NCBI GenBank assembly: GCA_031316235.1
Contig: JALDRA010000001.1
Span: 3,120,001 to 3,152,000, forward strand
Length of the DNA: 32,000 nucleotides
Source of the DNA: Candidatus Scalindua sp.
GTDB taxonomy: Bacteria; Planctomycetota; Brocadiia; Brocadiales; Scalinduaceae
Direction of reading: 5' to 3'
Within the stretch, counting starts at the first letter, position 1. Each line of letters begins with the position of its first letter. The notes below the pieces were generated by a model. It was not told where the DNA came from and searched no databases. It worked only from the letters and a program-made list of their open reading frames with translations. A program made the translations under genes and the position numbers. Shown here piece after piece: positions 1 through 20,712 of this stretch.

Positions 1-72
1 CGTACAAATGTACTTGAGGATTACGTAATTATTACAGCAACGCGGTAGATGGGTAATTCTCGTTCAACCACT
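1..72 (+). repeat. Intergenic repeat family 2, copy 1 (left part cut by window edge)
   Basis: Aligns by eye with 15371-15446 and 28734-28805. Shared blocks are CGTA..ATGT..TGAG, ATTA, AGCA.(A/G)GC.G, GGGTA.TT.T.GTTCAACC. The last bases overlap the stop codon (71-73) of the 71-544 gene. Confidence 0.6.
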
Positions 73-544
73 AATTACCTGAAATTTGCCCCGTATAGCT
101 GATTATTCTCAGATTTTTTGAGTTTCCCTGCCTGTTTTTAATAGTAATCGTATCTGTACCAAAGGCCGAAAAGTCTGCAGAACCATTCGGATCAAAGTTA
201 ACGGTGCTGGTTCCCGTAGTCCATGTCCCTGAACCCGTATCAAATTCTATACTATCTGGAAGGAACTCTTCTCTTCCTAATTCACTGTTATTTTCATCTT
301 TGATTAACAGCCTGGAGTATGTTGAGTCGAAAACAAGCAGTCGTGTTTTTCTGGAATTAATAGCCATTGTTCTGGCAGCCAGGGCTCTTGCTTGAACGAT
401 GCGTGCACCTTTACTCAAACTTTGCCCTTTCAGGAAAGGTGTTATTGCTGGCACGGTTATCACACCTACCAAAACAATGATTGCAATTACGACAAGCATT
501 TCTACGAGTGTGAAACCGTATCTGGTATCTGTGAGTGATTTCAA
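71..544 (-). CDS. Minor pseudopilin, GspH/FimT-like, with prepilin-type N-terminal cleavage/methylation motif
   Basis: N-terminus MKSLTDTRYG|FTLVEMLVVIAIIVLVG is the class III signal (G|F..E plus hydrophobic helix). The rest resembles GspH/FimT (ARIVQARALAARTMAI... TITIKN...RIISYTGQIS). TTG start. Confidence 0.8.
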   Translation of the reverse strand: MKSLTDTRYGFTLVEMLVVIAIIVLVGVITVPAITPFLKGQSLSKGARIVQARALAARTMAINSRKTRLLVFDSTYSRLLIKDENNSELGREEFLPDSIEFDTGSGTWTTGTSTVNFDPNGSADFSAFGTDTITIKNRQGNSKNLRIISYTGQISGN

Positions 545-880: not shown

Positions 881-1327
881 CTATCGATTCCAGTTGTTTA
901 TGTCGTCAATATCACTTCCGGAAGTTGTCGATATACCGTCCGGGCCTGGAGAATACAGGTCGTATGAACCGGTATTCTGATTTCCAGGAGAAACATATAC
1001 GAGAGGGTTACCCCAATAATCAACAATCGTATCACCGCTTACTGTATCATCATGTAATTCGATATACTGTCTTAAGGCGGTACCGGATGGTTGCAGCAGA
1101 GACTTGAGATTTGCTATATCCCCGGAAGGATAGGATCTGTTATCACTGTAATAGTGTTCAATCGCCATTTCCAGGCGATCGATCATTGTTCTGGTGGCCT
1201 TTATCTGGGTGTTTTTACTCAAACGGGGAACCACCGTCAAAACGGATGCGGTAATTACGAGGATTATGCTGATAACTACCAGAAGTTCTGTCAGGGTAAA
1301 TCCATTTTTACCAGTTTGTAATGTCAT
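881..1327 (-). CDS. gspG: Major pseudopilin, GspG/PulG-like
   Basis: MTLQTGKNG|FTLTELLVVISIILV prepilin motif. The C-terminal part matches the T2SS-G signature (YP..., DYWGNPLVYVSPGNQNTGSYDLYSPGPDGI...DDINNW). The ATG at 1327 is preferred over the GTG at 1336. Overlaps the upstream gene by 20 nt. Confidence 0.85.
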   Translation of the reverse strand: MTLQTGKNGFTLTELLVVISIILVITASVLTVVPRLSKNTQIKATRTMIDRLEMAIEHYYSDNRSYPSGDIANLKSLLQPSGTALRQYIELHDDTVSGDTIVDYWGNPLVYVSPGNQNTGSYDLYSPGPDGISTTSGSDIDDINNWNR

Positions 1328-1979
1328 CACTTGCACTGTTTCCTGAATCGTCTACCTTGTCAGGCCCGAATGAATATATATCAAACGAGGCGATATTGTG
1401 AGAAGGAGAGCTGCTTACGTATGAGTAATCACTGCCAAAAGGATCTTTATACTGGAAGACCTCTCTCGTTCCGTTGACTCCTTCTATACTGAGCGTTGCG
1501 GTATCTGAGGCAAAATCAGCACCCGATCCTTCAATCTGCGATCTCTTGAATTCTATATAGGGGCCGAATATCTCATTAAAACTCGTTGAATTGAACTTAA
1601 ACCTGCTGCCGAGAAAAAAGACAAGACATTTTGTGTCTGTATTGAGATCATCATCGCGAGGTATCTCTATACTGGCGAGAGAGATCATTGTATCTGCTGT
1701 TGTGTAGCTGTCGGGTGGAAAGAAACCAAAGTCACTCTCAAATTGCCTGAGTGCAAGCCCCAGCTGGCTTATCTGAGCAGCGGTAACGCCACTCTTTGCG
1801 TTGGTCTGGATAGAACTTACAACAGGTACGGTAATTCCAACAAGAACCATGATGATTACGAGAACAACTAACATCTCTACGAGCGTAAACCCGGTTGAAG
1901 AGTTCTTTTTTAACAGGGGGGAGGGAGGTACGGCAGGTTGTTCAGAACCCTGCGAGTCCATTAGTATCTCACTCGGCAT
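1308..1979 (-). CDS. Second GspG-like pseudopilin with an internal insertion
   Basis: Prepilin motif STG|FTLVEMLVVLVIIMVLVG lies at residue ~96 of the maximal ORF (open to 2177). The GspG-like C-terminus is FDIYSFGPDKVDDSGNSASDDITNW. The first ~66 codons of the maximal ORF are low-complexity read-through (MSMRNSMSMRGNS) of a CATACT-rich spacer, so M67 (1979) or M73 (1961) is the likelier start. Confidence 0.75.
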   Translation of the reverse strand: MPSEILMDSQGSEQPAVPPSPLLKKNSSTGFTLVEMLVVLVIIMVLVGITVPVVSSIQTNAKSGVTAAQISQLGLALRQFESDFGFFPPDSYTTADTMISLASIEIPRDDDLNTDTKCLVFFLGSRFKFNSTSFNEIFGPYIEFKRSQIEGSGADFASDTATLSIEGVNGTREVFQYKDPFGSDYSYVSSSPSHNIASFDIYSFGPDKVDDSGNSASDDITNW

Positions 1980-2263
1980 CCTGTCACTAAAGTGTATCGA
2001 ATACCTACGGAAATTTCCGGCAGAATTTTTTTCTGATGGTACAAAGTCCGTTAAACCCGCCAGAGATCCTGTTCTAAAATCTGATTTCATCACCTTTTTT
2101 TTATAAATTGCTGTAATGACGGAGAGAATTTTACTATGCGAGTTTCCCCGCATACTCATACTATTTCTCATACTCAATTTTCGACAACTCTTATCACCAT
2201 GGAACGTTCAACTCGGTTCACCCGCCATTTACTGCTTGACGGTCTTTATTCCCTTCAAAACGT

Positions 2264-3508
2264 TTAAAACGAACCCATACTGCTCATGAGTTTTATAAGA
2301 GGCATGAACAGGGCCAGGACTATCGTACCGATCGCACAGCCTATAAATGTGACCATAAGTGGTTCGAGCAGGCTTATCATAGCTGTTACTGCTGCATCAA
2401 TTTCTTTATCATAATTGTCGGCAGCCCTGGCAAGCATCATATCTAACTTGCCAGATTGTTCGCCTATTTCTATCATACTGACAAGTGTGGGCTTGCATAT
2501 CTTTGTATCCCGCAATGTCTTTGCGATTTTTTCTCCTTCACGGACTTTATTATGCATATATTCTATTGCATTTCTGAGTGCGGTATTTGCCGTAACATCT
2601 TTAACATTATTTAAAGACTGTAAAATAGGGACACCACTTGATGTCAGGGTTGAAAGAGTTCTGACAAATTTGGAAATAACAGACTTGCTTATGATAGAAC
2701 CGATAACAGGCAGTTTGAGTGTTATCCTGTCCTTTATCAGCCTGCATCTTTTCATTTTCATGATGAGCTTATATAAGACAAACAAAGCGACAGGAAATCC
2801 AAAGATTACATACCATCGGCTGATCATAAAGTCGCTCAAGCTGATAATCATCACGGTAATCCATGGAAGAGAGATGTCAAGCTCATCAAACATCTTTGAA
2901 AAACTGGGGATTATGAAAATCATAATCCCTGATATTATTGCACAGGCAACGAAAACAACAGCCAGTGGATAGGTTATCGAGCTTATTATTTTCAGCTTGA
3001 GTGCCCGGATTTTTTCCCGATAATTTGCCAGCCTGTCAAGAATTATATCAAGTGCACCCCCGATCTCTCCGGCTTTTATCGTATTTACATACAGCTTGTC
3101 GAATGCTTTCGGGTGTTTCTGCATTGCACCTGACAGATTATTGCCTTCCTGGATATCTCTTATCATGTGAGTGAGTATGGTTTTTAATAATCCTTTTTTC
3201 AGCTCAGATTCAATAATAATCAAACTTTCCACAATTGATATTCCCGCTTCCTGAAGTGTTGATAACTCTCGTGTAAAGGAATCTATTTCTTTTGGATTTA
3301 TCCTGCTTAATAAGAATGCTGTTGGGGGTTTTTTCTTTTCTTTGTTTCTGGTTCTGTTCTTGCGAAGGCCTCTGGTTTCTTTTATACTGGTGAGAAAAAA
3401 CCCCCTCTCACCAACCTTTCTGATGGCCTCTTCGTTTGAGAGTGCTTCAATCCAATCTTTAACCAGGATGCCTTTTTTGTCTATCGCTTTAAATTTGAAA
3501 GTTGGCAT
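2264..3508 (-). CDS. gspF: Type II secretion / type IV pilus platform protein GspF/PilC
   Basis: 414 aa with two T2SS-F repeats, each followed by TM helices (e.g. ...AGEIGGALDIILDRLANY... and ...IGEQSGKLDMMLARAADNY...). This is the typical size and topology. Confidence 0.9.
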   Translation of the reverse strand: MPTFKFKAIDKKGILVKDWIEALSNEEAIRKVGERGFFLTSIKETRGLRKNRTRNKEKKKPPTAFLLSRINPKEIDSFTRELSTLQEAGISIVESLIIIESELKKGLLKTILTHMIRDIQEGNNLSGAMQKHPKAFDKLYVNTIKAGEIGGALDIILDRLANYREKIRALKLKIISSITYPLAVVFVACAIISGIMIFIIPSFSKMFDELDISLPWITVMIISLSDFMISRWYVIFGFPVALFVLYKLIMKMKRCRLIKDRITLKLPVIGSIISKSVISKFVRTLSTLTSSGVPILQSLNNVKDVTANTALRNAIEYMHNKVREGEKIAKTLRDTKICKPTLVSMIEIGEQSGKLDMMLARAADNYDKEIDAAVTAMISLLEPLMVTFIGCAIGTIVLALFMPLIKLMSSMGSF

Positions 3509-3725: not shown

Positions 3726-5438
3726 TTAAGCTACTTCCCTCATAACCTCTTTTATTGTAGTTTGACCATTATAGATTGCATTGAGTCCGCTCTCCAGCAA
3801 AGTTTTCATACCGCTCCTTCTCGCAATTTTCCTTATTGTTTCTGTGGATGATTGTTGAATGATGTGGGAACATATCTCATCGTTAATCGTCATTATTTCA
3901 AGGATAGACAATCTGCCCTTGTAACCTGTATTGTTGCATTTACCGCAACCTTTTTCCCGATAGAACTGCTTTTTCCCTAATACCGATTCAGGGATATGAA
4001 GCTTCTTGATAATATTCCTGTCCGGCATATACTCTTCCCTGCATTCAGGGCAGAGCTTTCTCACCAGCCTCTGATTTATGACGGCCGTAAGTGAAGCGGT
4101 TATTAAATACGGTTTAACGCCCATATTGATTAATCTTGTTATCGTCGATGGTGCATCATTTGTATGTAAGGTACTTAAAACGAGATGGCCGGTAAGTGAA
4201 GCATGCATTGCAACTTCAACTGTTTCTAGATCTCTGATCTCACCCATCAGGATAATGTCCGGGTCTTGTCTCAAAATTGCTCTCAGGCTGTTGGCAAATG
4301 TAACGCCGATTTCTGAATGGATCTGTACCTGCGTGATACCATCAATGTCATATTCTACCGGATCTTCAGTCGTAATAATTTTTATTCCGGAACAGCGTAC
4401 AAAATTAAGAGCGGCATATAATGTTGTCGTTTTACCCGAGCCTGTGGGTCCTGTAACCAGGATAATACCGTATGTTTTCTTCATCAACTGTTTAATTGTG
4501 TTGAGATCCTGGTAATTTAATCCTAACTGTGTAAGATCAAGTGAAACTGAATTCTTGTCCAGTATCCGCAGGACAATACTTTCTCCATGTTTGGTAGGTA
4601 ATGTGGAGATGCGAATGTCAACATGGTGACCTCTTATTGTTACATGTGCATGGCCATCCTGAGGTACTCTCTTTTCCGCTATGTCCATGTTTCCCATCAC
4701 CTTGAGTCTTGAAACAATGCCGTTTGCAAAGTGTGGGGGGACAGGTATCTCATCAAGCAGCATACCGTCAACTCTGAAACGGACATGGAACTCATTTTCA
4801 AAGGTTTCAAAATGGATGTCGCTTGCCTTATCTGAGATTGCCTGCAAAAGTATTAAATTGACGAAACTTTTAACTGGTGCATTATCGACCAGGTCTTCAA
4901 GATCTCCAATCTCTTGAGATTCTTTGGTTTTACTCATTTTCTTTTCAGGAGTATAGTGCTCAAATGTATCCATGAGTTCTTCGATGGATTCATGTTCTCC
5001 CGGATAGTATCTATCCAGGCAGTTTGAAATCAACTCCTGCTCAGCCAGGACAGCCTTGAGATTATACTTGAGTAAGAATCTCAGGTCATCCATCTGTTCC
5101 ATATTGAGAGGTTCTTCCTGTGCTAACGAAAGGGTATACCCATCGTAAGCTATGGGAAGGACTCGATAAAGCTGCGCAATTGAAGGTGGAATCTTTTCAA
5201 TGATATCCGGTTTCAGTTCAACTCTTCTGAGGTCAACAACCTCCATGTCAAGATAATCACTTAAGGCTTCCAATATTAACTGGTGTGAGGTTACGCCGGA
5301 CTCTACTAATGTTTTCCCCAGTGACTTACCGTTAAGTTGCTGCATTTCGAGTGCTTTTTCTATCTGGATTTCATTTACCAGTCTCTTTTCCAGCAGGATC
5401 TGTCCAAATAATTTTTTTCGCACTTCCTTTATGCTCAT
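3726..5438 (-). CDS. gspE: GspE/PilB-family secretion ATPase, paralog 2 (MshEN-like N-domain with degenerate c-di-GMP motif)
   Basis: Walker A GPTGSGKTTTLYA, Asp box, Walker B ILMGEIRD, His box LVLSTLHTNDA, tetra-Cys CPEC...CGKC. The N-terminal T2SSE_N/MshEN-type fold is LFGQILLEKRLVNEIQIEKALEMQ-QLNGK-SLGKTLVESGVTSHQLILEALSDY. Confidence 0.92.
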   Translation of the reverse strand: MSIKEVRKKLFGQILLEKRLVNEIQIEKALEMQQLNGKSLGKTLVESGVTSHQLILEALSDYLDMEVVDLRRVELKPDIIEKIPPSIAQLYRVLPIAYDGYTLSLAQEEPLNMEQMDDLRFLLKYNLKAVLAEQELISNCLDRYYPGEHESIEELMDTFEHYTPEKKMSKTKESQEIGDLEDLVDNAPVKSFVNLILLQAISDKASDIHFETFENEFHVRFRVDGMLLDEIPVPPHFANGIVSRLKVMGNMDIAEKRVPQDGHAHVTIRGHHVDIRISTLPTKHGESIVLRILDKNSVSLDLTQLGLNYQDLNTIKQLMKKTYGIILVTGPTGSGKTTTLYAALNFVRCSGIKIITTEDPVEYDIDGITQVQIHSEIGVTFANSLRAILRQDPDIILMGEIRDLETVEVAMHASLTGHLVLSTLHTNDAPSTITRLINMGVKPYLITASLTAVINQRLVRKLCPECREEYMPDRNIIKKLHIPESVLGKKQFYREKGCGKCNNTGYKGRLSILEIMTINDEICSHIIQQSSTETIRKIARRSGMKTLLESGLNAIYNGQTTIKEVMREVA

Positions 5439-5447: not shown

Positions 5448-7142
5448 TTAATCGTTTGATACTCTCTTGATCTCTTCCAGGGTTGTAATTCCGGCACGGA
5501 CCAGTCTCAATCCATCTTCCTTTAATGTTGTCATTCCTTCAGAATGAGCGATCTTTCGTAATTCGTTTGTCGGCACTTTTCTGTGAATAGCCTCCCTTAA
5601 TTCGGGAGTCAAAGACAGAAACTCAAATATCCCTACCCTTCCAAAATAACCGGTGTTGTTACAATAGTTGCATCCCTGCCCGTGAAAAGATAGTGAACCG
5701 TCAAAATCCTCTGTGGTAAACCCGAGATCATTTAAGCTCTCTTTTTCCATGTTCTGTGGGACTTTACATGAGGGGCATATGACTCTCACGAGGCGTTGAG
5801 CCAGTATTGCGTTAATGGATGCTGATAAGAGAAAGGGTTTTATTCCCATTTCAGTCAGCCGTGTTATCGCTGAAGGGGCATCATTTGTATGGAGTGTGCT
5901 TAATACAAGGTGTCCTGTTAATGATGTTGAAACGGCTATTTCTGCTGTCTCAATATCACGTATTTCACCAACAACTATCACGTTTGGGTCTTGACGGAGC
6001 ATGGAACGCAGGATTTTAGAAAAAGTCAGTCCTACCTTTTCTTTAACTTCACACTGATTAATTCCTCTCAGATCATATTCTATAGGATCTTCCACGGTAA
6101 TTATTTTATATTGTTTCGGATTGATTTCATTTATGGCCGCATAGAGCGTGGTCGTTTTTCCGCTACCGGTAGGACCGGTGATCAAAATGATACCGTTCGG
6201 CCTGCTTAATAACTCTTTTACATGGCGGTGATTATGTTCTGAAAGACCGACATTATTCAGTTGAATGAGTGAAGATGATTTATCCAATAACCTCATTGTA
6301 ATACTTTCGCCGCATGTGGAAGGTATGGTACTGACCCTGATATCAGTCTGCTTTCCTTCAACATTTACTGAGATTCTCCCATCCTGGGGTTTTCTTGTTT
6401 CGGTTATGTCCATATTTGAGAGTATCTTTATCCTGCAGACCAACGCCTCATGTACGTTTTTCGTAATAGTATGCATATCATGACATACACCATCAATCCG
6501 GAATCGTATATTAATATTAGTCGACAACGGTTCAATATGTATGTCGCTGGTTCTCGTCTTGACAGCCTCTTTAAAAATATGCATGACAAGTCTCACAATG
6601 GGTGATTCCGAATCATCCAGCCCCTCAGCACCGAAGTGGCTATTCTGGGAGGCCTTGAGCGCTAACCCCTTGAGATCATTGCAGATATCTCCTAGCATGA
6701 GTTCCGTATTCTTTTCATAGTATTTCTTTATGGCGTTCTCAATATTATCGCTCGTTGCCAGAACACACTCTATGTCATAATCAAGGATAAAACGCAGGTT
6801 TTCCTGGGTGTTAATATCAAGCGGGTCGCTTGTTGCCACAATAAGAAGCCCATTTTGTCTTGCAATAGGTATGATATTATATTGTTTTACGATATCTTTT
6901 TTAATAATGTTTATAACGTCATCGGGAATAGCGATAGCCAGAGGATCAACAACTTTATAATCAAACTGTTCCGCAAGACAATTGGTAATATGTTCAGCGT
7001 TAGCAAAGCCCATCTTTATTATCACATCACCCAATCTGGCAGACAGCATCTTCTGTTGCTCCAATGCCTTATCCAGCTGTTCCTGGGTAATAAATCCCTT
7101 TTCTTTCAGTATTTGTCCGATTGCTTTTCGTGTGGTCTTCAT
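5448..7142 (-). CDS. gspE: GspE/PilB/MshE-family secretion ATPase, paralog 1 (well-conserved MshEN c-di-GMP-binding motif; motif 2 fully canonical)
   Basis: Walker A GPTGSGKTTTLYA, VVGEIRD, LVLSTLHTNDA, CPSC...CNYC. The N-terminus is AIGQILKEKGFITQEQLDKALEQQ-KMLSA-RLGDVIIKMGFANAEHITNCLAEQ, i.e. two 24-residue RLGxx(L/I)(L/I)xxG(L/F)(L/I)xxxxLxxxLxxQ-type motifs separated by 5 residues. Confidence 0.92.
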   Translation of the reverse strand: MKTTRKAIGQILKEKGFITQEQLDKALEQQKMLSARLGDVIIKMGFANAEHITNCLAEQFDYKVVDPLAIAIPDDVINIIKKDIVKQYNIIPIARQNGLLIVATSDPLDINTQENLRFILDYDIECVLATSDNIENAIKKYYEKNTELMLGDICNDLKGLALKASQNSHFGAEGLDDSESPIVRLVMHIFKEAVKTRTSDIHIEPLSTNINIRFRIDGVCHDMHTITKNVHEALVCRIKILSNMDITETRKPQDGRISVNVEGKQTDIRVSTIPSTCGESITMRLLDKSSSLIQLNNVGLSEHNHRHVKELLSRPNGIILITGPTGSGKTTTLYAAINEINPKQYKIITVEDPIEYDLRGINQCEVKEKVGLTFSKILRSMLRQDPNVIVVGEIRDIETAEIAVSTSLTGHLVLSTLHTNDAPSAITRLTEMGIKPFLLSASINAILAQRLVRVICPSCKVPQNMEKESLNDLGFTTEDFDGSLSFHGQGCNYCNNTGYFGRVGIFEFLSLTPELREAIHRKVPTNELRKIAHSEGMTTLKEDGLRLVRAGITTLEEIKRVSND

Positions 7143-7208
7143 TTCGATACAAGTATACCCCTGGCTGCAGGATTAATCTGAAGGACATATTTGATGATTG
7201 TGCGTTGG

Positions 7209-7991: not shown

Positions 7992-8909
7992 TTAATGAAC
8001 GATAACCCTGTTTTTCCCCTGGGTTTTTGCCTGGTAAAGCACGGTATCTGCAGCCGTAATCAGAAATTCAGGGGAGCTGTTTTCCTGCGGGGTGTCAGGG
8101 GTAAACCCTGCCAGCCCGAAACTTGCCGTAACCTGTATCTCTTTCTCCTCAATTCTCATGGTTTTTTGAGCAATATTTTCGCAGATCCTTTTTGCTAAAA
8201 AGGAGGCACCCTCGATTCCTATTTCCGGAAGGACAAGTAAAAACTCTTCGCCTCCGTAACGGACAAGCCAGTCCAGGCCTTGCCTGATAGTGTCGTTTAT
8301 CGTTTGAGCAAAAAGTATTAATACCTGATCTCCGGTTACGTGCCCGTGCGTATCGTTAATTTTCTTGAAATTATCTATGTCACACATGATAATCGACAGC
8401 GAATGTCTGTATCTCCTCGCTCTTTTGATCTCATTGTTTAGATGTGCATTCATATAGGTACGGTTGAAGCATCCGGTAAGAGCATCGGTTATCGATAATC
8501 TCAGATTCTTTTTATCGTGTTCCCGTTCCAGCAGAGACTGTTTATTATATTCAATTCCATCATTAATTGCCGCAATGAGGGTTTTTGGATCGCAGGGTTT
8601 GGTCAGAAACCGAAAGATGTTTCCCTGGTTTACTGCATCTATGGCTTTCTGGAGTTCGGCCTTGCCGGTAAGGATTATGCATGCACAGTCAGGATTTATC
8701 TCCTTGACAGAGGAGAGGAACTGGAGCCCGTTCATGACCGGCATCTGGAGGTCGGAAACAACAACAGAAAAAACCCCGTCGTTGGCAACTTTTGTCAACC
8801 CCTGTTCACTTCCAAGGGCGGTATCGATGCTGAATAATTTTTTCAGCATACGTTTGTATGACATTAATATGTTTGGCTCGTCATCCACAAAAAGAACTTT
8901 ATCATTCAT
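7992..8909 (-). CDS. Response-regulator diguanylate cyclase (REC-GGDEF, PleD/WspR-like)
   Basis: REC: VLFVDDEPN...VVVSDLQMPVMNG...ILTGK...FLTKP. GGDEF: active-site RYGGEEF, preceded by RQGLD (not a canonical RxxD I-site). AAAGGGAG precedes two ATGs (8915, 8909) and spacing favours 8909. The maximal ORF runs to 9002. Confidence 0.9.
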   Translation of the reverse strand: MNDKVLFVDDEPNILMSYKRMLKKLFSIDTALGSEQGLTKVANDGVFSVVVSDLQMPVMNGLQFLSSVKEINPDCACIILTGKAELQKAIDAVNQGNIFRFLTKPCDPKTLIAAINDGIEYNKQSLLEREHDKKNLRLSITDALTGCFNRTYMNAHLNNEIKRARRYRHSLSIIMCDIDNFKKINDTHGHVTGDQVLILFAQTINDTIRQGLDWLVRYGGEEFLLVLPEIGIEGASFLAKRICENIAQKTMRIEEKEIQVTASFGLAGFTPDTPQENSSPEFLITAADTVLYQAKTQGKNRVIVH

Positions 8910-9142
8910 CGGCATCTCCCTTTTTTTATAACGTATGCTGTTCCCCAATTTTGAAAAAAATATCTCTCTCGTGTTAAAATTATGCCTTTCGATTGCAGCC
9001 ACTTATTCACGGTTACCATCCCTTCCCGATAATGAACCTGTGGAGGACGGAAACACACATCAGTGAGGCAGCAAATATTTTGTTCCTGCTTCAGGATACC
9101 TACCCTTTAAAATGATACTGACCGGACTGCTGTAAGCAGAAA

Positions 9143-9781
9143 TCAATCTCCCGGAGCCGATAAGCTTTCTTCTGCTTTTAAAAGAAAGCCGGAAAGAATT
9201 GCCTTCGTGTCAATATCCATATGAATAAATTCTATGCCCAGACCTATATCTTCAGTGTTTGTGCTTATGTTTTTCTGTATTGATGGTATGGTCAGTTCGT
9301 TCTTCATGCCGGGCAACTTGAAGAGTATGGTGAATTCGCCTACCGTCTCTATTGAGGTAATGCAGTGTGCAATCTTTGAAAGATCTGCAATAAAATGGCA
9401 TCCTTTTTTGCTAATATCGGTAATGCTCCCCTCTATTAAATTGCCTGAAATTTTTACCTGAGCAGGCAGATGGCAGCTGATTCTCTTGTTGCTTCGCAGG
9501 CCAAAGTTCTCAAATCTGGTCGGATAATCAATAAAGATCAGGTGTGCCGGATTGGTAATAAAGCCGAGTATGCGGGAACTGAAGCCAAAGATAGTGCCTT
9601 TATGGCGGTATTTAACACTAATCCCGTTTCCTCTGTATAATATGTTTGCCGTAAGTCCCAGCTCATACAAAGGTGGCATCTTGAGAATCACATATTCTCC
9701 TTCCTCCATTCCGACGAGTTCGGTTGTCAGCTGTGCTTCAACGCCATTTACCTGGATTCCCATTAAGGTACCTATATTCAT
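9143..9781 (-). CDS. PilZ-domain c-di-GMP receptor (YcgR-like N-domain + PilZ)
   Basis: Canonical PilZ motifs RSNKR (RxxxR) and DISKKG (D/NxSxxG) about 25 residues apart, with a ~100-aa N-terminal beta-barrel-like domain. Confidence 0.8.
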   Translation of the reverse strand: MNIGTLMGIQVNGVEAQLTTELVGMEEGEYVILKMPPLYELGLTANILYRGNGISVKYRHKGTIFGFSSRILGFITNPAHLIFIDYPTRFENFGLRSNKRISCHLPAQVKISGNLIEGSITDISKKGCHFIADLSKIAHCITSIETVGEFTILFKLPGMKNELTIPSIQKNISTNTEDIGLGIEFIHMDIDTKAILSGFLLKAEESLSAPGD

Positions 9782-10168: not shown

Positions 10169-12094
10169 TTACATCCCATTTGCTGCTAAAACCTTATTTA
10201 GGTCATTTGTTTTCAGTGAAGGTGTACCGGCAATGACCTGGCCTAAAATATCCAGTGACAATGGAGAATTAAGAACAAGGATATCCTTATACTCTCTGGA
10301 TGTCATGAGTGTAGCATTGTTTATCATAGTATCAAGAACTTCATCTGATAATGGACTATTGTTTTGCATGGTCCACTCAAAGGACATCATTATTGTACCT
10401 TCATTTATTGCTGCAATAAGTACATTGTCAGACAATGGGTTATTACTCGCTAAGTTTAAGATATTTTCATTGTCACCGGAAGACAATGAAGGATTTCGGT
10501 TTATCATTGCGATCAGTACGGCATCTGATAGCGGCGATTCGCTAACAAGATAATTTGCAACATCAGATGAACTATTTGCCGGGTTATTGATGAAGTCTAT
10601 TAGTGCCTGATCATTAGAGTCAGGGGTAGCAGAACTACAGTCATCATCAATTCCATTGCCGGGTATCTCGGCTATACTGGGGTTGACAGCTGGATTGGCA
10701 TCATCACAGTCACCCTGGTTCCCGGTAAATCCGTCACCGTCATTGTCTATATCGAGAAGACTGTCTGGGGTTGCAGAGCTGCAGTCATCATCGATTCCGT
10801 TACCGGGTATCTCGGCTATACTGGGGTTGACGGCTGGATTGGCATCATCACAGTCACCCTGGTTCCCGGTAAATCCGTCACCGTCATTGTCTATATCGAG
10901 AAGACTGTCTGGGGTTGCAGAGCTGCAGTCATCATCGATTCCGTTGCCGGGTATCTCGGCTATACTGGGGTTGACGGCTGGATTGGCATCATCGCAGTCA
11001 CCCTGGATCTCGGTAAATCCATCACCGTCATCATCTGTATTGAGAAGGCTGTCTGGAGTGGCCGGGTTACAGTCATCATCTTTCCCGTTATCAGGTATCT
11101 CTGCCATAGCGGGGTTGACGGCCGGGTTGCCGTCATCGCAGTCACCCTGGTTTCCCGTAAACCCGTCACCATCATTGTCTTCACCCTCATCAGGATCCTC
11201 TATGGTGGCAGTCGTTCTGCCGTCAATGGACAACTCCAGCGCTGCGCCGTTATTTCTGTCCAGGACATCAACCGTTCCCGTTATCAGGGTGACGGTAGTG
11301 GCCCTGTTTGCATTAACCGTCCCGACCGTAAACCGGGTGCCCCGTACCCCGATAATGGCACTCGGTGTTACCACCTCGAATTTAGAGCCTGCCGTAACCT
11401 GGATATCGATTGTCCCCTCGTCTTCAACCCGTATGATGCTGTAGAGTGTCCCGTCTGCCAGCCGAACCGACTGGACGAGGTATGTCCCGTATCCCGACTG
11501 GGAGTCGGTGATGGTCACCCTGCTTCCGTCTGAGAAGACCATTTCATCATTTATGCTGCCTATGGTTCTCTCGGCAGAGGTACCGTCGGGCGGTATCTCC
11601 TGGCCGTTAACGAGTACGGTATCGATATTGGTGATATTGGTTGCACCTGCACCGAAGAGATTTGTGGCTTTTTTCGCCTCCCTGTGGTGGGGACATCCGA
11701 TGATGAGTTTGTCAACATCGTAGGGGTCCTTTCGTGCCACATAATAGGGGTCATAGCTTGCAAAGCTGGCGGTGCTGACCGGGTTGTCGTCTTCGGGGCA
11801 GAAAAAGGTCTTTTTTTCCGGCACATAGCGGGCAAGTTCGGCAGAGAGGGGGAGGGTATCATTGGAGTCATCCGGGTAGCCGTCCTTCGGGAATTTTCCG
11901 TGTTCGTTATAGTAGATCTGCATACCCAGGGAAATCTGTCTCAGGTTGCTCATGCATGCAGTCTGGTGAAATGCAGTGCGTTCCTTGAGGATGGCAACCG
12001 TTGCAATGCCGGCCACTATCGCTACGATGGTCATCGTGATCATGATTTCGATGAGCGAGAACCCTTTTTTAGCGCCGGAGAATATGTTTTTCAT
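10169..12094 (-). CDS. Giant chimeric pseudopilin: prepilin/DUF1559-like N-terminus + FecR-like domain + 4 Asp/Cys-rich repeats + C-terminal PLSDxVL repeats
   Basis: MKNIFSGAKKG|FSLIEIMITMTIVAIVAG prepilin motif. CMSNLRQISLGMQIYYNEHGKFP and FFCPEDD resemble planctomycete DUF1559 pseudopilins. VVTPSAIIGVRGTRFTVGT is FecR-like. There are 4 copies of D(N/D)DGDGFTxxQGDCDDxNPAVNPxxAEIPxNGxDDDCxxATPDS and 4 copies of (S/N)xPLSDxVLxxxIN. Confidence 0.85.
   Translation of the reverse strand: MKNIFSGAKKGFSLIEIMITMTIVAIVAGIATVAILKERTAFHQTACMSNLRQISLGMQIYYNEHGKFPKDGYPDDSNDTLPLSAELARYVPEKKTFFCPEDDNPVSTASFASYDPYYVARKDPYDVDKLIIGCPHHREAKKATNLFGAGATNITNIDTVLVNGQEIPPDGTSAERTIGSINDEMVFSDGSRVTITDSQSGYGTYLVQSVRLADGTLYSIIRVEDEGTIDIQVTAGSKFEVVTPSAIIGVRGTRFTVGTVNANRATTVTLITGTVDVLDRNNGAALELSIDGRTTATIEDPDEGEDNDGDGFTGNQGDCDDGNPAVNPAMAEIPDNGKDDDCNPATPDSLLNTDDDGDGFTEIQGDCDDANPAVNPSIAEIPGNGIDDDCSSATPDSLLDIDNDGDGFTGNQGDCDDANPAVNPSIAEIPGNGIDDDCSSATPDSLLDIDNDGDGFTGNQGDCDDANPAVNPSIAEIPGNGIDDDCSSATPDSNDQALIDFINNPANSSSDVANYLVSESPLSDAVLIAMINRNPSLSSGDNENILNLASNNPLSDNVLIAAINEGTIMMSFEWTMQNNSPLSDEVLDTMINNATLMTSREYKDILVLNSPLSLDILGQVIAGTPSLKTNDLNKVLAANGM
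10616..11179 (-). repeat. Tandem 144-bp coding repeat (4 copies) inside the giant pseudopilin gene
   Basis: The CCGGGTATCTCGG anchor recurs at 10659, 10803 and 10947 (and a diverged CAGGTATCTC at ~11092), a period of exactly 144 bp. Copies 10659-10802 and 10803-10946 differ at only 2 positions by my reading. Confidence 0.95.
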
Positions 12095-12696
12095 TATGAT
12101 AACTCACGTTACTATCCCTTGTTTTGAGAAGTACGATTTGAGATTTATTTTGATGTTTTTAATGAAGCAGTAAATAAAGAAATCAACTCATCTGCTTCTT
12201 TAATCAGATCAATTCATATCTTTTTAATACCAGAATCGTAAATAATAATTTTCAGATCTTTGATCATGAAGTAGAGAAATAAAAAAGCAAGAATCGTGCC
12301 TTTTAGAAATAAAACCCGCTACCAGTGGTCGTATTCCAGATCTCCGGGGTAACATATCGATGGGAGGCCGCCATATAAAGAGGACCGGTTACAGCTAACT
12401 CTTTACTGAATAAGGACGCTCTCGCCGGATCATCCACTACCCTGCAGAATTTTTGTAAACCTCCCATTATCGGTGTAAAAGGGGGAGCAATTACGTTTTT
12501 TATCAAAAAGCATTTATTTGCCCGGATTTGTATAATATTTCAACGATTATCTTGACCGCTACAGGGAGTATTAAATGGTTAATTCTGCTTGAGGGGAAGA
12601 ACAAACGGAAAATAACCCAGAAGACCCTATTTTTTTGCAGGTTCAGCCGATAATGCTACGTATACTCATCTTGTGCCGCACTTCCCGCTTGAAGAG

Positions 12697-13323
12697 ATGA
12701 ATAGAAAAAAAAGTAAAGGAAAAAGTATTATCAATCAGACAACCCAGTTATTAACGGCTTTATTCTTCTTCCTTGGAGTAGCAGTTACTCCCGTCCATGC
12801 AGAAAACCTGATAGATGAGGGTTTTGAGTCAGGGTGGGGTGGATGGAGTGCTGATTGCGGAGTCTGGGAGATAGGTCTGCCCAGATCAGGGCCCGGATAC
12901 AGCCACGATGGTTCTCTGTGTGCCGGTACGGCCCTCGATGGAAACTATCCTAATAATACAGACAGCCGATTAATCAGTCCGGCAATCACTCTTCCATCTG
13001 TTGCGGATCACGAAGAAATCTATCTCGAATTCTGGCACTGGTTTTCTTATCTTAATAACCCGTTTTCTGATGATAAGGGGTATGTGCAGATAAAAGTCTA
13101 CTATAGTGAAACGGGGAAGTGGTCAGACTGGACAACTCTTGGGAGTACAATAAAGAATACCTCCTCAGTCTGGACATTGAGAAAAGAGGATCTTACGAGA
13201 TATTCCGGGAAAAAGATACAGATAGCCTTTTATCATAGAGTTGATGATGTGTATACATCAACCGGCTGGTATATTGACAATATTGAGATTTCCGGGCCGG
13301 GTGCCTCTTCCCCTGCTTTCTGA
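12697..13323 (+). CDS. Small secreted protein with MAM/'choice-of-anchor J'-like beta-sandwich domain
   Basis: Signal peptide MNRKKSKGKSIINQTTQLLTALFFFLGVAVTPVHA|ENL. The domain pattern EGFESGWGGWS...W..G.P..GP...DGNYPNNTDSRLISP.ITLP...LEFWHWF...GYVQIKV...W...IQIAFY...TGWYIDNIEISG is typical of that family. The ORF is open from the GTG at 12673 but the ATG at 12697 is preferred. Confidence 0.7.
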   Translation: MNRKKSKGKSIINQTTQLLTALFFFLGVAVTPVHAENLIDEGFESGWGGWSADCGVWEIGLPRSGPGYSHDGSLCAGTALDGNYPNNTDSRLISPAITLPSVADHEEIYLEFWHWFSYLNNPFSDDKGYVQIKVYYSETGKWSDWTTLGSTIKNTSSVWTLRKEDLTRYSGKKIQIAFYHRVDDVYTSTGWYIDNIEISGPGASSPAF

Positions 13324-13465
13324 TATGCGAAAACCGATCTGGTTTTATCTGTTTCTAAAAGCCAAAGCCTGGTTAAAGGTATCCCCGGACAAAAAGCGCC
13401 GAGGACTTTCCCCGGTTCGTTTTTTCTCGGATTGTATCCGAAATCCAGTATGAGATGAGTATAAA
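13324..13465 (+). repeat. Intergenic repeat family 1, copy C (long form)
   Basis: ATATGCGAAAACCGATCTGGTTTTATCTG...GGTATCCCCGGACAAAAAGCGCCGAGGACTTTCCCCGGTTCGTTTTTTCTCGGATTGTATCCGAAATCCAGTATGAGATGAGTATAAA. Starts on the base after the TGA stop of the 12697-13323 gene. Confidence 0.9.
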
Positions 13466-13523
13466 CACCGTATGGGATGGAGGGGAGGAACACGGGAGAT
13501 TTATCGAGTTTTCCGGGTAAATC

Positions 13524-15278
13524 TCAAATTGGACATACCCTGTTTCTCCCGCTGTTTTTGGCCTGATAGAGACCTTTATCGGCCCGTACAATAAATCTCT
13601 CACCTGTTTCATACCCATCATGGTATTCAGCAACACCAAAACTCGCCGTTACCCTATGGGGTGTTCTGTGATCTCCGAGATAAAATCGATACTGCTCAAT
13701 GGATTTGCGGATTTTATCTGCAATCTTGACGGCATTGTCACGGTTTGTGCCGGGCAGCATGAGAATGAATTCTTCACCTCCATAACGGCAGGCAACGTCG
13801 AGTGTCCGGCTTATAGTGCGTAATATCCTGGACACCGTACATAACACTTCGTCTCCCGCTGCGTGCCCGAAGCTGTCATTAATCTTTTTAAAGAAATCCA
13901 GGTCAAACATGATAACCGAAAGATCTTTATTTCTACGGAGTTTTACACTCTTGATCTCGGCATTGAGCATTAATTTGAAATGACCAATATTGTAGAGACC
14001 GGTCATATTGTCTTTCGTTGCCAGGTTCGTGAGTCTTCTTTTTTCAATCGTAACAATAATTTGATGATAAACCGTTAAGGCAAAAGAGCTGAAAAAAATG
14101 AGAATCAACGGATAAACAAGGCTGATGATTACATTACCATAGGCAAACAGGACTACGGAAGTAATTGTATAACTCAAGGCAAGCGCGATAATGAGAAGAA
14201 GAGTGTTAAAATATCCAAAACGCTGAGTAATGAGAAAAATCAGCCCGCTCAGGCACCAGATTATCAGGAGATTTTCAAAATCACCGGTGGTGCTCAGGAA
14301 TTCTCTTTGAAGGAGGGAATTGGTAACCGTTGCATTGATGCCCACTGAAGGATAGGCGGGTTCCAGAGGGATGGAACGGATATCATGGAGCCCTGTCGCC
14401 GTAACACCTACAATACAGAGTGAATCTTTAAACATCTCCATCGGTATCAGGGTTTTCCGGCCCTGCAACCATTGAGAATAGGCAACCATGACATCATTGT
14501 AGGATAGGTGAGAAAAAGTTTCCGTCCACCTGCCGGCCCAGTTAATGATCATATCACCCTCTTTTGTCAAAGGGATTTTCAGGGGCTTTTCGCCTGGTAG
14601 GGGAACCTGGAGAAAATTGCTGCCGGTTTTCATATCCTCTGGATCAATACCGTAGTAATCGAGTGCCAGCACCAGGCCAAGCTGGTAATAACTCCGGTTT
14701 TTGTACTGAACTCTGAGCTTGATTCTGCGAACTAGGCCATCGCTGTCTGGTTGAACGCTAATGTGCCCTTCCGTTTTAGCGGCATTCTCAAACAGGGGAA
14801 TGGGTTGGATAATATTATTCCCCCTTATTGCGTGTAAATCCTGAAAAGCAACAGGCAGGTACACGTTTCCCGCTTCTTTCATGCCTTGTGCAAACACGGT
14901 ATCTGATTCATCCGTAGAAGTTTCAGGAAAAAGGATATCGAAGGCAAGGGCCTTAACCCCCCAATCTGACATCGCTTTCGTTAATGCGGCATGTCTTTCA
15001 CGGTTCCAGGGCCACCTTCCCAGCTCTTTGATACTGTCTTCTGCAATTTCAATAATAATGATTTTTGGATGAACAGGAAGAGTTGTCCTGTATTTGAAGC
15101 GTTGATCCAGGCTCATATTCTCTACCGTATCAAATGTTCCGGCAAGATAAAAAAATGTTGAAATTGCAGCAACGAGGAGTACAACGAAAATCTTTGAAAC
15201 GAACAGGTTTTCCTCACGCATCAAGTAGCTCTTTACGTGTATAAAAAATCTTCCAATAGGCAGGAGGAATTTTGGCAT
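13524..15278 (-). CDS. CHASE2-sensor diguanylate cyclase (CHASE2-TM-GGDEF)
   Basis: N-terminal TM, then a periplasmic CHASE2-type region (ELGRWPWNRERHAALTKAM...ALAFDILF...HISVQPDSDGLVRRIKL), 3-4 TM helices, and GGDEF with RYGGEEF and an intact RTLD I-site 5 residues upstream. The alternative start M20 is at 15221. Confidence 0.88.
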   Translation of the reverse strand: MPKFLLPIGRFFIHVKSYLMREENLFVSKIFVVLLVAAISTFFYLAGTFDTVENMSLDQRFKYRTTLPVHPKIIIIEIAEDSIKELGRWPWNRERHAALTKAMSDWGVKALAFDILFPETSTDESDTVFAQGMKEAGNVYLPVAFQDLHAIRGNNIIQPIPLFENAAKTEGHISVQPDSDGLVRRIKLRVQYKNRSYYQLGLVLALDYYGIDPEDMKTGSNFLQVPLPGEKPLKIPLTKEGDMIINWAGRWTETFSHLSYNDVMVAYSQWLQGRKTLIPMEMFKDSLCIVGVTATGLHDIRSIPLEPAYPSVGINATVTNSLLQREFLSTTGDFENLLIIWCLSGLIFLITQRFGYFNTLLLIIALALSYTITSVVLFAYGNVIISLVYPLILIFFSSFALTVYHQIIVTIEKRRLTNLATKDNMTGLYNIGHFKLMLNAEIKSVKLRRNKDLSVIMFDLDFFKKINDSFGHAAGDEVLCTVSRILRTISRTLDVACRYGGEEFILMLPGTNRDNAVKIADKIRKSIEQYRFYLGDHRTPHRVTASFGVAEYHDGYETGERFIVRADKGLYQAKNSGRNRVCPI

Positions 15279-16257: not shown

Positions 16258-18726
16258 CTACACCTTTATGGGAATGGCTGTTTCTGATTTGTCATGCGGC
16301 TCTATTATACGGTTTTCAGGGCATTGATTAATAGAGGTGAGGAAAATTGCTGCAAGTTTCGGATCAAACTGGGTCCCTGCACCCCTTTCAATTTCCTGGC
16401 AGGCTATTTCCATCGAGAGTCCCTTTCTATAAACCCTGTCTGATGTCATTGCGTCATAGGCATCGGCAATTGAGATGATCCTTGCTATCAGATGGATATC
16501 ATCCCCCTTTAAACCATCAGGATACCCCTTGCCATCATACCGTTCATGGTGGTTGCGTACACCGGGCATCAGGACACTTAATCGGGACATCGGTTCCAGA
16601 ATTTTGCTCCCCTTCAGGGGGTGTGATTGTATTATTTCAAATTCTTTCGCTGATAGACGGCCCGGTTTATTTAAAATATCACCACTGATTCCAATTTTTC
16701 CAATATCATGAATAGTGGAAGAGAGCTCTATAAATTCCAGTTCTCCCGGTGTCAGACCCAGCTCCCTTCCAATCCCGACACTGTATCCGGCCACCCGCTT
16801 CGAATGTCCATGGGTATAGGAGTCTCTTGCATCAAGGGCTGTCGAAATTGATTTGATATAATCAAGGAAGATGGAGTGAATACTGTTATTGAGCTGATGA
16901 TTTTCGATTGCGATGGCAATCTGATGAGTGAATGAAGAGAGTACTCTCAGTTCTTCAGAGGTAAATTTTGACAAGGGTGAAAATGCTGAAGTTGGCTTGT
17001 TGCAGAGGAAAAGGGTCCCTATGATCTGTCTTCTCAAAAATATTGGGACACAGAATACACTCCGTATAGCTGTCTGTAGCAGTGACAAATCGGGATGAAT
17101 AGAGAGATCATCAATCCAGACAGGCTTTTCATCGGAGAGAATCCAGGTATTTACCACGTCTGCTATTCTGTCTAATTCTTCTCTGGTTCCATGAAGAGCT
17201 GTTGCGGTAGAGTGTTTAAAACATTGTGTATCTCCATCCAGGGTATAGAGTGCGACCATTTCACAGCGGGTTGTTTTTTTTATAGGATCTAAAAAACCTG
17301 ATGGCAGTGTTGATGAAACGGTGAGCGCAGAAGTGATCCTGACATCTTCCTGAAAGCGTTGTAAAGAATACTCATCAGGTTCATGGGTAGATGTCGTGAT
17401 CTCTCCGACCTCAAGAAGCATGTTTAATTCAAGTTCTCTCATGGCCGATTCTTTGTTGGCAACACTGAGATTGACAGCCAGACAGGCACCGGTATTCATC
17501 AAAAGCATTGTTACGAACGGCATCATTTCAATCATTAAATTTGCTTTTTGAAATAAGAACAGACTGGTAAATGCAACAATTCCTGAGAGTAAAAACAGGA
17601 ACAAAAGACCGCCTGCAAGGAGAGAATAGGTACTGCCCCGTATGCGTATCCTGAAAATGAGTATGCTCAGGAGTATTGATACACCCACGATGATGGATAT
17701 AATGGTGTAAGACTGAGGTACCCGGATGAAATTTTCCGTCAACAGGTTGTAAAGGATGTTTGCATGCAGGAATATTCCGAATTTACGTTCAAAGGGTGTA
17801 ACATGAATGTCCTGTTCCGCACCTGGTGAGGTAATACCAAAGAGAACAATTTTGTCTTTGAAGTGGTCGGCGGGGAGCCTGTTTTCATTTTGTAACGATA
17901 CGTCTGAAAATGAGTATAAGGTGATAGGTTTCTCTTTTCCTATCTTATCCAGCCATTGAACGCTGTTTTGCTGGTATAAATTAATGTATTTTTCAAAATC
18001 TATATAATTAATCGGCAAACAACTATTTTTGTCAAGGGGTATCGTTAATTCACCTATTCTGAAATGATTTCCATGATATGACTGGATTTCAGGTTCAATC
18101 CCCTTTGATTCGAGAAATGCGGAAAGGGCGAAAGGGAGAAAACGTTTCCTGCCGTCTGCACTCGATATTTGAAGGGGTATCCTTCTTGCAACTCCGTCAC
18201 TATCATAAAATACGTTTAAGTGGCCTGTTCTTTTTGTCGAGTCGGAGAGTAATTTTATATTTTCAATTATTTTTCCCTTGTAAATGCCATTTTCAGGCCT
18301 TGTTCTGAAAAGATTAACCGTTGGACTCCATATAGGGAAGATAGTCATATCAGCGTTAATGGCAGCTTCTGATAAAGCGGTATCGTTCTCTGGATTTTCA
18401 CTATCCTGGAGGTCGAAAAACATATCAAAGGCAATAACACTGGCGCCGCCTTTTTTTAAATAGTCTACCAATTCTGCATAACGGCTTCTTGGCCAGGGCA
18501 GATGGCCGAACAGTTGCATATCTTCATCCGTAATGCCAATTACTGCTATTTTTGGCACATCGAGTCTCTTTTTGACGCTATTATTTCTGAGACGCCAGTC
18601 GTACAAGATTTTTTCCGGCTTATCAAAGATTCCGGTAAAGGATAACAAGGATATGATTGCCGTGACCGTTAACCCCCACAGGAAACCATGGAAGTTTTGT
18701 TTTATAAAAGGCTTAACATTAAGCAT
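16258..18726 (-). CDS. CHASE2-sensor c-di-GMP phosphodiesterase (CHASE2-TM-GAF-HD-GYP)
   Basis: CHASE2 region (FGHLPWPRSRYAELVDYL...VIAFDMFF...HLNVFYDSDGVARRIPL), a block of TM helices, a GAF-like middle domain, and a C-terminal HD-GYP (HGHSKRV...HDIGKIG...HHERYDGKGYPDGL). Confidence 0.88.
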   Translation of the reverse strand: MLNVKPFIKQNFHGFLWGLTVTAIISLLSFTGIFDKPEKILYDWRLRNNSVKKRLDVPKIAVIGITDEDMQLFGHLPWPRSRYAELVDYLKKGGASVIAFDMFFDLQDSENPENDTALSEAAINADMTIFPIWSPTVNLFRTRPENGIYKGKIIENIKLLSDSTKRTGHLNVFYDSDGVARRIPLQISSADGRKRFLPFALSAFLESKGIEPEIQSYHGNHFRIGELTIPLDKNSCLPINYIDFEKYINLYQQNSVQWLDKIGKEKPITLYSFSDVSLQNENRLPADHFKDKIVLFGITSPGAEQDIHVTPFERKFGIFLHANILYNLLTENFIRVPQSYTIISIIVGVSILLSILIFRIRIRGSTYSLLAGGLLFLFLLSGIVAFTSLFLFQKANLMIEMMPFVTMLLMNTGACLAVNLSVANKESAMRELELNMLLEVGEITTSTHEPDEYSLQRFQEDVRITSALTVSSTLPSGFLDPIKKTTRCEMVALYTLDGDTQCFKHSTATALHGTREELDRIADVVNTWILSDEKPVWIDDLSIHPDLSLLQTAIRSVFCVPIFLRRQIIGTLFLCNKPTSAFSPLSKFTSEELRVLSSFTHQIAIAIENHQLNNSIHSIFLDYIKSISTALDARDSYTHGHSKRVAGYSVGIGRELGLTPGELEFIELSSTIHDIGKIGISGDILNKPGRLSAKEFEIIQSHPLKGSKILEPMSRLSVLMPGVRNHHERYDGKGYPDGLKGDDIHLIARIISIADAYDAMTSDRVYRKGLSMEIACQEIERGAGTQFDPKLAAIFLTSINQCPENRIIEPHDKSETAIPIKV

Positions 18727-19420: not shown

Positions 19421-20710
<1,290 letters not shown>

Positions 20711-20712
20711 CT

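Follow-up and report, generated by a model that had tools for sequence, protein, structure and literature searches.

The gene at 10169..12094 (minus strand) of a 32,000-nucleotide stretch of Candidatus Scalindua sp. DNA (contig JALDRA010000001.1; this whole stretch is referred to below as the window) very probably encodes a genuine modular pilin. The complete coding sequence, stop codon included, is a single intact open reading frame (ORF) of 641 residues with an ATG start; after removal of the leader the mature protein has about 630 residues, a computed mass of 66.5 kDa and a computed isoelectric point of 4.05. The order of its modules is confirmed as a class III (prepilin) signal peptide, an alpha-1 helix, a small family-specific head, a FecR-fold beta domain, four MopE-type repeats, and C-terminal helical repeats. 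Modular pilins are defined as proteins that combine the IPR012902 pilin motif with at least one domain not specific to pilus biology (PMC8179133), and the 641-residue protein joins N_methyl to PF04773 and to four copies of PF11617. As to its role, we think it reasonably probable that the protein is a low-abundance, tip-proximal filament subunit that presents an acidic, variable tail for binding on the outside of the cell. An earlier note on this DNA had described the product as a giant pseudopilin with an unusual domain fusion. Put to profile searches, its calls of a prepilin motif, a FecR domain and four Asp-rich repeats were all supported, and its call of a DUF1559 segment came out weak.

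By sequence comparison the N-terminus is a bona fide class III signal peptide followed by the pilin alpha-1 helix, not a plain signal anchor, because the family profile matches solved pilins and because Gly-1, Phe+1 and Glu+5 are kept in 104 of 104 family N-termini (family alignments comprised 45 relatives at first and 105 later, with 104 N-termini available for the leader counts). The leader, residues 1-11 (MKNIFSGAKKG, 12062..12094, minus strand), has a predicted cut after Gly11, and the sequence continues after it as FSLIEIMITMTIVAIVAG. The helix, residues 12-65 (FSLIE..., 11900..12061, minus strand), carries a Glu at mature position 5 and is assigned from the family profile and from AlphaFold2, which places a 52-residue N-terminal helix (14-65) in both models. 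Pfam N_methyl (residues 9-31, E = 2e-7, 30.7 bits, cutoff 21.2) and NCBIfam TIGR02532 (E = 1.2e-7, 31.2 bits, cutoff 16.3) are both matched above their cutoffs. The solved pilins reached by the family profile, over the N-terminal 60-70 residues, are Geobacter PilA (1.7e-10), Myxococcus PilA (8.9e-7), PilE1 (5e-4) and GspG (1.7e-3). The prepilin leader and helix proposed in the earlier note are thereby upheld, and so is their kinship with pilins, which the note had left exposed to refutation by a plain signal anchor.

The head (residues 66-155, 11630..11899, minus strand) is specific to this family. The columns C99, C134, H137 and D71-G72-Y73-P74 are invariant in the family alignments, as is C47 in the alpha-1 helix. 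A DUF1559/PulG-like segment had been suggested to follow the helix, a suggestion that came out weak. PF07596 (DUF1559) reaches 19.9 bits (cutoff 23.3) and aligns only at profile positions 10-45 of 268, which correspond to the alpha-1C helix; no H-X9-DG model (which we take to be TIGR04294) is among the NCBIfam matches at E <= 1. TIGR01710 (GspG) likewise reaches 19.9 bits, far below its cutoff of 88.85, on the N-terminal helix only, and there is no match to PF08334 (T2SSG). The likeness to planctomycete DUF1559/H-X9-DG proteins consists of the shared phylum, a prepilin N-terminus with a CxxNLRQI-type alpha-1C segment, and weak PF07596 matches in 13 of the 45 family members (best 1.4e-7). Unlike those proteins, the 641-residue protein stays below the cutoff with 36 of the 268 profile positions, and its much shorter head (about 90 residues) is followed directly by a FecR domain.

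The FecR-fold beta domain (residues 156-300, 11195..11629, minus strand) rests on a profile match and on a fold match, and the earlier note's recognition of a FecR-like beta domain was correct. PF04773 is found at residues 184-275 (E = 1.6e-7, 32.1 bits, cutoff 24), a segment that includes VVTPSAIIGVRGTRFTV, and is matched in 45 of 45 family members. AlphaFold2 yields a confident all-beta domain at 156-300, for which Foldseek retrieves BDI_1681 (4M0N, 1.9e-5, root-mean-square deviation 3.0 Å over 128 columns) and PupR (6OVK, 2.7e-3), its structural neighbours being periplasmic domains of anti-sigma regulators. A sequence search of PDB with the FecR region alone returned only spurious titin matches (E about 0.3).

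Within this domain, Gly252-Thr253 (11336..11341, minus strand) is invariant in 105 of 105 family sequences. The family profile aligns FEVVTPSAIVGVRGTKFTV with FRVLTRQGQLTALGTEFTV of E. coli FecR such that the Gly-Thr pair falls on Gly181-Thr182, in an alignment that is short and weak (3 bits). For FecR and FoxR, non-enzymatic self-cleavage of this bond through an N-O acyl shift has been reported (PMC8144685, PMC9249621). The protein might thus be cut at Gly252-Thr253, with the stem 12-252 carrying a non-covalently held fragment 253-641 as releasable cargo; the shed or exchanged fragment could then be a cation- or metal-capturing or matrix-forming exoprotein delivered by the filament. The invariant, aligned Gly-Thr pair and the documented chemistry argue for such a cut, as does the content of metal-ligand residues in the tail, where a conserved His-rich block and a Cys/His module are appended in most paralogues. 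The pair, however, belongs to the conserved signature of FecR domains and may be kept for folding alone. Cleavage also hinges on local structure, since FecR mutants altered away from the site lose it, and FoxR works without self-cleavage (PMC9249621); moreover, the 641-residue protein itself has no His-rich block. We regard a releasable tail as improbable. Its further elaboration, a c-di-GMP-gated fishing line with which Scalindua would present or shed cation- or metal-capturing modules docked non-covalently on a filament, namely a His-rich block, MopE Cys/Asp repeats and a Cys/His module, we consider very improbable; if true, the pilus would serve an anammox bacterium hungry for metals as a device for scavenging them or for seeding a matrix. 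The family offers a clean test case for the Gly-Thr self-cleavage chemistry of FecR outside sigma-factor signalling.

The resemblance to the anti-sigma regulators FecR, FoxR and PupR comprises the fold of the beta domain (4M0N and 6OVK, as above) and the position of the Gly-Thr pair. It ends there: the 641-residue protein is anchored by a prepilin helix and not by a bitopic transmembrane segment, it has no cytoplasmic sigma-binding N-domain and no detectable STN-like subdomain, and the 32-kb window holds no gene for a TonB-dependent transducer or an extracytoplasmic function (ECF) sigma factor. Because a cytoplasmic domain, a sigma factor and a transducer partner are all missing, we conclude that the protein is not a FecR regulator and only borrows the domain. 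A related alternative is that of a membrane-anchored periplasmic sensor or regulator, in which the helix serves as an anchor only and the FecR fold communicates with CHASE2 domains, tuning cyclic di-GMP (c-di-GMP) and assembly. Several observations fit this alternative. Anti-sigma regulators use the FecR fold as their periplasmic signalling domain (PMC5498481, and the Foldseek neighbours). Genes for CHASE2-GAF-HD-GYP or CHASE2-GGDEF proteins are conserved immediately upstream in all inspected lineages; in the window these are a sensor phosphodiesterase (CHASE2-GAF-HD-GYP, 16258..18726, minus strand) and a sensor diguanylate cyclase (CHASE2-GGDEF, 13524..15278, minus strand, recurring in loci L001, L002 and L049). 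In another anammox bacterium, Kuenenia stuttgartiensis, the inner-membrane machine TatC ends in a FecR domain that lies outside the cytoplasm (PMC2881027), and membrane pilin pools feed back on signalling in other bacteria (PMC7196804). Set against these, the protein has no cytoplasmic output domain, the 11-residue leader alone preceding the helix; Pfam and NCBIfam detect neither a sigma/anti-sigma N-terminal domain nor the C-terminal STN-like domain of FecR; the residues of processing and polymerisation (G-1, F+1, E+5) are kept without exception; and the tail, which is long, hypervariable, highly acidic and contains Cys, has the appearance of a module exposed at the surface and not of a periplasmic sensor. 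A periplasmic sensor is hence unlikely in our view, and we return to the filament subunit below. We note that FecR modules grafted onto envelope machinery may be a recurring theme in anammox bacteria.

Four MopE-type Cys/Asp repeats of 48 residues each (residues 306-497, 10604..11179, minus strand) follow the FecR domain, with units beginning at residues 306, 354, 402 and 450. The earlier note's four Asp-rich, two-Cys repeats are matched by Pfam Cu-binding_MopE (PF11617, which we take to be IPR021655) in four stretches (E = 4e-26) and at the DNA level by Tandem Repeats Finder (10619-11180, 144-nt period, 3.9 copies, 88% matches, score 830). The segment 301-497 is strongly acidic, with 53 Asp and Glu residues, a single Lys or Arg and 8 Cys, and AlphaFold2 models it as four irregular units with moderate confidence. 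Any two repeat copies show 7-39 nucleotide differences over their 144 nt. Between copies 3 and 4, for example, 19 nt are changed yet only 4 residues, so that many of the differences between them are synonymous. This pattern indicates purifying selection on the peptide and speaks against a collapse of the assembly.

The earlier note had also pointed to a resemblance of these repeats to putative calcium- or metal-binding motifs of surface proteins. The repeats match the PF11617 motif; MopE-like copper binding does not follow from this match, and an assignment of copper binding from the name MopE was rejected on the ground that PF11617 is short and generic. With MopE/CorA, the copper-binding proteins of methanotrophs, the protein shares the 30-residue PF11617 motif only. 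The family profile gives a weak match to residues 6-45 of MopE (2VOV, E = 0.21, about 40 residues), and no similarity was found to the rest of that protein, including the region described as the copper site (two histidines and a kynurenine; PMC3423442). These comparisons and those above set the 641-residue protein apart from GspG, from MopE homologues and, by the Pfam threshold, from DUF1559 proteins.

The C-terminal helical-repeat domain (residues 498-641, 10172..10603, minus strand) has no Pfam family. AlphaFold2 models five helix pairs over residues 493-638, the first starting at residue 493, with a predicted local confidence score (pLDDT) of 84-97. SPLSDxVL motifs are found at residues 521, 553, 581 and 611, of which the last is degenerate, in agreement with the four C-terminal repeats of the earlier note. 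The domain is rare: an exhaustive HMMER scan found it in only 77 clusters among 1.84 billion representatives, and a word-indexed protein search returned 2 fragments only. The module also occurs in large proteins that carry type IX secretion system (T9SS) sorting tails or DUF6443, that is, in secreted or surface proteins. We infer a tail of extracellular type from this sharing with T9SS-sorted proteins together with the acidic 301-497 segment and the catalogued fusion of IPR021655 to PilY1 tip adhesins (PMC8179133). In comparison with P0001, the positional orthologue of the 641-residue protein (in both cases the copy directly upstream of the PilZ gene), the C-terminal domain is 92% identical, the core 83% and the repeats 66%, which makes the distal helical domain the most constrained part of the protein.

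Could the fusion be an artefact of assembly or annotation, the repeats having led to a mis-joined, chimeric ORF? The four 144-nt units and their local G+C content (0.54, against about 0.43) are features of the kind that can break assemblies. The same N- to C-terminal order, however, recurs in independent Scalindua assemblies: P0004 (640 residues, 69% identity, 100% coverage), P0001 (731 residues) and P0006 (639 residues) are full-length relatives with the domain order of the 641-residue protein, and P0002 and others agree. The repeat copies are also distinguishable (copies 3 and 4 are identical over at most 113 consecutive nt), and the C-terminal domain lies beyond the repeats with its high identity to P0001. 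A chimera, another condition under which the earlier note would have withdrawn its claim, was ruled out on these three grounds and is exceedingly improbable; the fusion is genuine because full-length homologues exist and because the repeats differ at the DNA level. Assembly could affect only the exact number of repeats, which is four here and 2-12 or more elsewhere.

The architecture as such has precedents. More than 1,200 modular pilins in 264 architectures were catalogued by Raynaud et al. (2021, PNAS, PMC8179133), whose Dataset S1 lists IPR012902-IPR006860 (12 proteins) and IPR012902-IPR006860-IPR021655x3 (1 protein). IPR006860, which is FecR/PF04773 (PMC5498481), appears there as one of the 15 most frequent appended modules "with no clear function", and IPR021655 is found in the same catalogue fused to PilY1 tip adhesins as well (PMC8179133). 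Of the earlier note's description as an atypical fusion, the large size and the genuineness of the fusion stand, and the word unusual was an overstatement, given that pilin-FecR layouts were already on record. Like the modular pilins of S. sanguinis (PilB, a pilin with a vWA domain, and PilC, a pilin with a lectin domain), the protein consists of an N-terminal pilin module and appended domains, for which display by the filament, probably near the tip, has been proposed (PMC8179133). It differs from them in its undescribed helical-repeat domain and in its setting, a type II secretion system (T2SS)-like cluster of a diderm planctomycete and not a type IV pilus of a monoderm. In the literature, we found no experimental study of a FecR- or MopE-type modular pilin, nor of Scalindua pili. 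What is new is thus the sequence, which is less than 90% identical to anything on record (68-87% to proteins of Scalindua metagenome-assembled genomes); what is known is the architecture, already catalogued and annotated. On present evidence the gene at 10169..12094 does not define a new type of system.

A protein search with the 641-residue protein returned 3,127 relatives, the full-length ones being named by NCBI as prepilin-type or MopE-related proteins of Candidatus Scalindua. Across the family alignments a core of about 300 residues, comprising the pilin stem and the FecR fold, is strongly conserved. The tails that follow combine a His-rich block, 0 to more than 12 MopE-type repeats, a CHKPGT...HLGHGD..G.C module, and 0 to many SPLSD helical repeats. 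The His-rich block (HSHYHTHxxGxxHxHxHP..N.AHHG, 9-15 His) stands directly after the FecR domain in most family members (P0012, P0013, P0069-P0119); the 641-residue protein and the proteins nearest to it lack the block. The CHKPGT module forms the C-terminal end of many short paralogues. Both the block and the module resemble metal sites and are without a Pfam family. Family members range from 380 to 950 residues in size, the prepilin motif also opening paralogues of 941-952 residues, and up to five tandem paralogues are found per locus. For pilus biology, the family is a natural range of cargo modules built on a single conserved pilin-FecR chassis. Tandem arrays with 3-4 or more pilin-FecR-MopE paralogues (544-952 residues) occupy the syntenic site in L049 (10001-20647) and L001 (10001-21675); L049, from a 2.9-Mb contig of a Scalinduaceae genome, holds at least four, of 596, 952, 544 and 892 residues. 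The arrays are interspersed with genes of PF05635 (23S rRNA intervening sequence/four-helix bundle) or with IS66/DDE transposases, which marks the paralogue locus as a hot spot of expansion and rearrangement.

In at least five Scalindua lineages, the pilin gene stands at the head of a conserved cluster, with c-di-GMP functions on both sides of the gene. Upstream lie the two CHASE2 genes described above. Immediately downstream is a gene for a PilZNR-PilZ protein (9143..9781, minus strand), a c-di-GMP receptor type found at the same position in relatives, followed by a REC-GGDEF response regulator/diguanylate cyclase (7992..9002, minus strand). Next are two PilB/GspE-type ATPases with MshEN c-di-GMP-binding domains (5448..7142 and 3726..5438, both minus strand; NF053729 at 59.1 and 45.5 bits, respectively, cutoff 38) and a GspF/PilC platform protein (2264..3508, minus strand). 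The cluster continues with two GspG-like pseudopilins that carry the T2SSG domain (1308..2177, a 289-residue ORF, and 881..1336, 151 residues, both minus strand) and a GspH-like minor pseudopilin (71..544, minus strand). The true start of the 1308..2177 gene is probably internal, because the N_methyl motif is found only at ORF residues 92-116; its relatives are called at 207-261 residues. The MshEN motif comprises 24 residues and occurs in tandem copies with a 5-residue spacer (PMC5013675). Read against that description, the first ATPase carries the motif twice in tandem, separated by the expected 5 residues. Its second copy, RLGDVIIKMGFANAEHITNCLAEQ, keeps R1, L2, G3, I6, I7, G10, F11, L21 and Q24, and positions 12 and 17 are occupied by Ala and Ile, respectively. 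The presence of two MshE-type ATPases within one cluster is notable in itself.

The order of c-di-GMP sensors, pilin-FecR gene(s), ATPases, platform protein and pseudopilins is also found in four other lineages, those of SCAELEC01/AMX11, OFTM1 and an ENA Scalindua contig. In a fifth, L049, the same upstream flank is conserved, and the retrieved locus stops before the ATPase genes. The family members examined sit at the same locus in every lineage inspected, and gspE and gspF follow wherever the retrieved locus extends that far; the linkage to gspE/F about which the earlier note had asked is thus present in each of those lineages. In a close relative (L010), further genes of the cluster encode a GspJ-like protein, which also resembles "Verru_Chthon cassette" protein C, and then an 809-residue GspK-like protein (12363-14792), in which a lamin-tail domain is joined to a C-terminal part of GspK type and which resembles "Verru_Chthon cassette protein A"; the cluster ends with this gene and has no secretin. 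The 809-residue protein is a second oversized candidate for a pilus tip, and the window ends before the corresponding region. The ATPases resemble Vibrio cholerae MshE and the ATPases of MSHA-type filaments in carrying the tandem 24-residue motif (PMC5013675), and by this analogy assembly of the filament is probably c-di-GMP-gated. Unlike in MSHA-type systems, there are two paralogous ATPases here, the minor pilins are T2SS-like or similar to the "Verru_Chthon cassette" of the PVC (Planctomycetes-Verrucomicrobia-Chlamydiae) group, and no MSHA pilin homologue was found.

From these elements a role as a tip-proximal subunit can be outlined. A prepilin peptidase would remove the 11-residue leader after Gly11, and the alpha-1 helix would be pulled from the inner membrane and polymerised by the neighbouring ATPase and platform machinery when c-di-GMP is high. 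A cargo of about 475 residues would favour low abundance and placement near the tip, and it is on account of this cargo that we propose such a position. The FecR-fold domain may act as a rigid stalk and the Cys/Asp repeats as a disulfide-locked spacer stabilised by cations (probably Ca2+), while the conserved helical-repeat domain would provide a distal binding surface for attachment or aggregation, possibly for cation capture.

Several points weigh against this outline. That the 641-residue protein is processed, polymerised and exposed at the surface is what we infer. The head (66-155) is modelled poorly, with pLDDT values of about 35-60 in both AlphaFold2 models and only a beta-hairpin (117-133) within it, and in neither model did Foldseek find a pilin-fold match for it; a deeper AlphaFold2 run on the core (105 sequences) gave no better model of the head, and Foldseek again returned FecR-type matches only. 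The C-terminal domain has no significant PDB match in Foldseek that would point to a ligand, and PF11617 is described in the literature as a short, generic Cys/Asp motif without specificity, which leaves no metal to assign. Neither a secretin nor a prepilin peptidase is encoded in the 32-kb window or in the inspected cluster of the relative. Pseudopilins of the GspK type, which form the extreme tip, lack Glu5; because Glu5 is conserved in the present family, the subunit would not be the extreme cap. Finally, the pilin gene holds the "pilA position" upstream of the ATPases, and short paralogues of 390 residues are common in metagenomes, observations that would also fit a major subunit. A prepilin peptidase, kustc0984, has been reported in the anammox bacterium Kuenenia (PMC2881027).

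The pilA position leads to another alternative, in which the protein is the major subunit of an unusually thick filament and the GspG/H/J/K-like genes encode its minor pilins. Its gene indeed lies directly upstream of ATPase and platform genes, in the manner of pilA-pilB-pilC in type IVa pilus loci, Glu5 is conserved, and the short paralogues (380-390 residues) form large metagenomic clusters. On the other hand, mature sizes of 380-950 residues are far above those of known major pilins, and tails differ greatly from one tandem paralogue to the next, which the subunits of a helical lattice do not usually do. Two GspG-like T2SSG genes are present besides, GspG being the usual major pseudopilin family. 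We consider a major subunit quite improbable and retain the tip-proximal subunit as the preferred role. The nearest parallels to the latter are GspK (at the T2SS tip), CofB (of enterotoxigenic Escherichia coli) and ComZ (of Thermus), oversized pilin-family subunits with extra domains that are thought to reside at the tip (PMC8179133). The present family differs from them in keeping Glu5 throughout (GspK has none), in extra domains that are appended C-terminal to the head and not inserted, and in the combinatorial variation of these domains between paralogues.

A large part of marine nitrogen loss is due to anammox bacteria of the genus Scalindua, which grow as aggregates. As a conserved part of a filament cluster probably under c-di-GMP control, the pilin-FecR family is a good candidate for an adhesin or matrix-binding element behind this aggregation. 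The interest of the family derives from the size and combinatorial tails of its members, from its conserved place in a probably c-di-GMP-gated filament locus of an ecologically important and hard-to-study bacterium, and from the invariant Gly-Thr pair.

Further features of the window concern the surroundings of the cluster. Divergent from the pilin gene is a gene for a 216-residue choice-of-anchor J/InhA-like MAM domain protein (12673-13323, plus strand); a counterpart of 199 residues is found at the same place in L049 and may represent a conserved partner. A sigma-54-like -24/-12 element, aGGCACgattcTTGCt, at 12301-12286 (minus strand) precedes the pilin ATG by about 190 nt; among the matches in the window it alone has 1 mismatch. 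It was rejected as a promoter, the total match count being that expected by chance and no equivalent being found upstream of 11 orthologous or paralogous genes. Some relatives have a gene for a sigma-54 activator nearby. No Rfam family, be it a c-di-GMP riboswitch or another RNA, reaches its gathering score anywhere in the window. Repeats of about 100-120 nt in both orientations (599-714, 7208-7323, 7596-7712, 13322-13464, 15554-15721, 15824-15928 and 18801-18917) occupy unusually long intergenic gaps, have no Rfam match at gathering score, and look like miniature inverted-repeat transposable elements (MITE) or repetitive extragenic palindromic (REP) sequences; 599-714 and 18802-18917, for example, are 95% complementary. 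From 20000 to 32000, a plus-strand block of housekeeping genes (uppS, cdsA, phoH, ybeY, recO, TPR/YfiO, lptE, folP) shows a strong positive GC skew of 0.12-0.29, and the minus-strand filament cluster has almost none.

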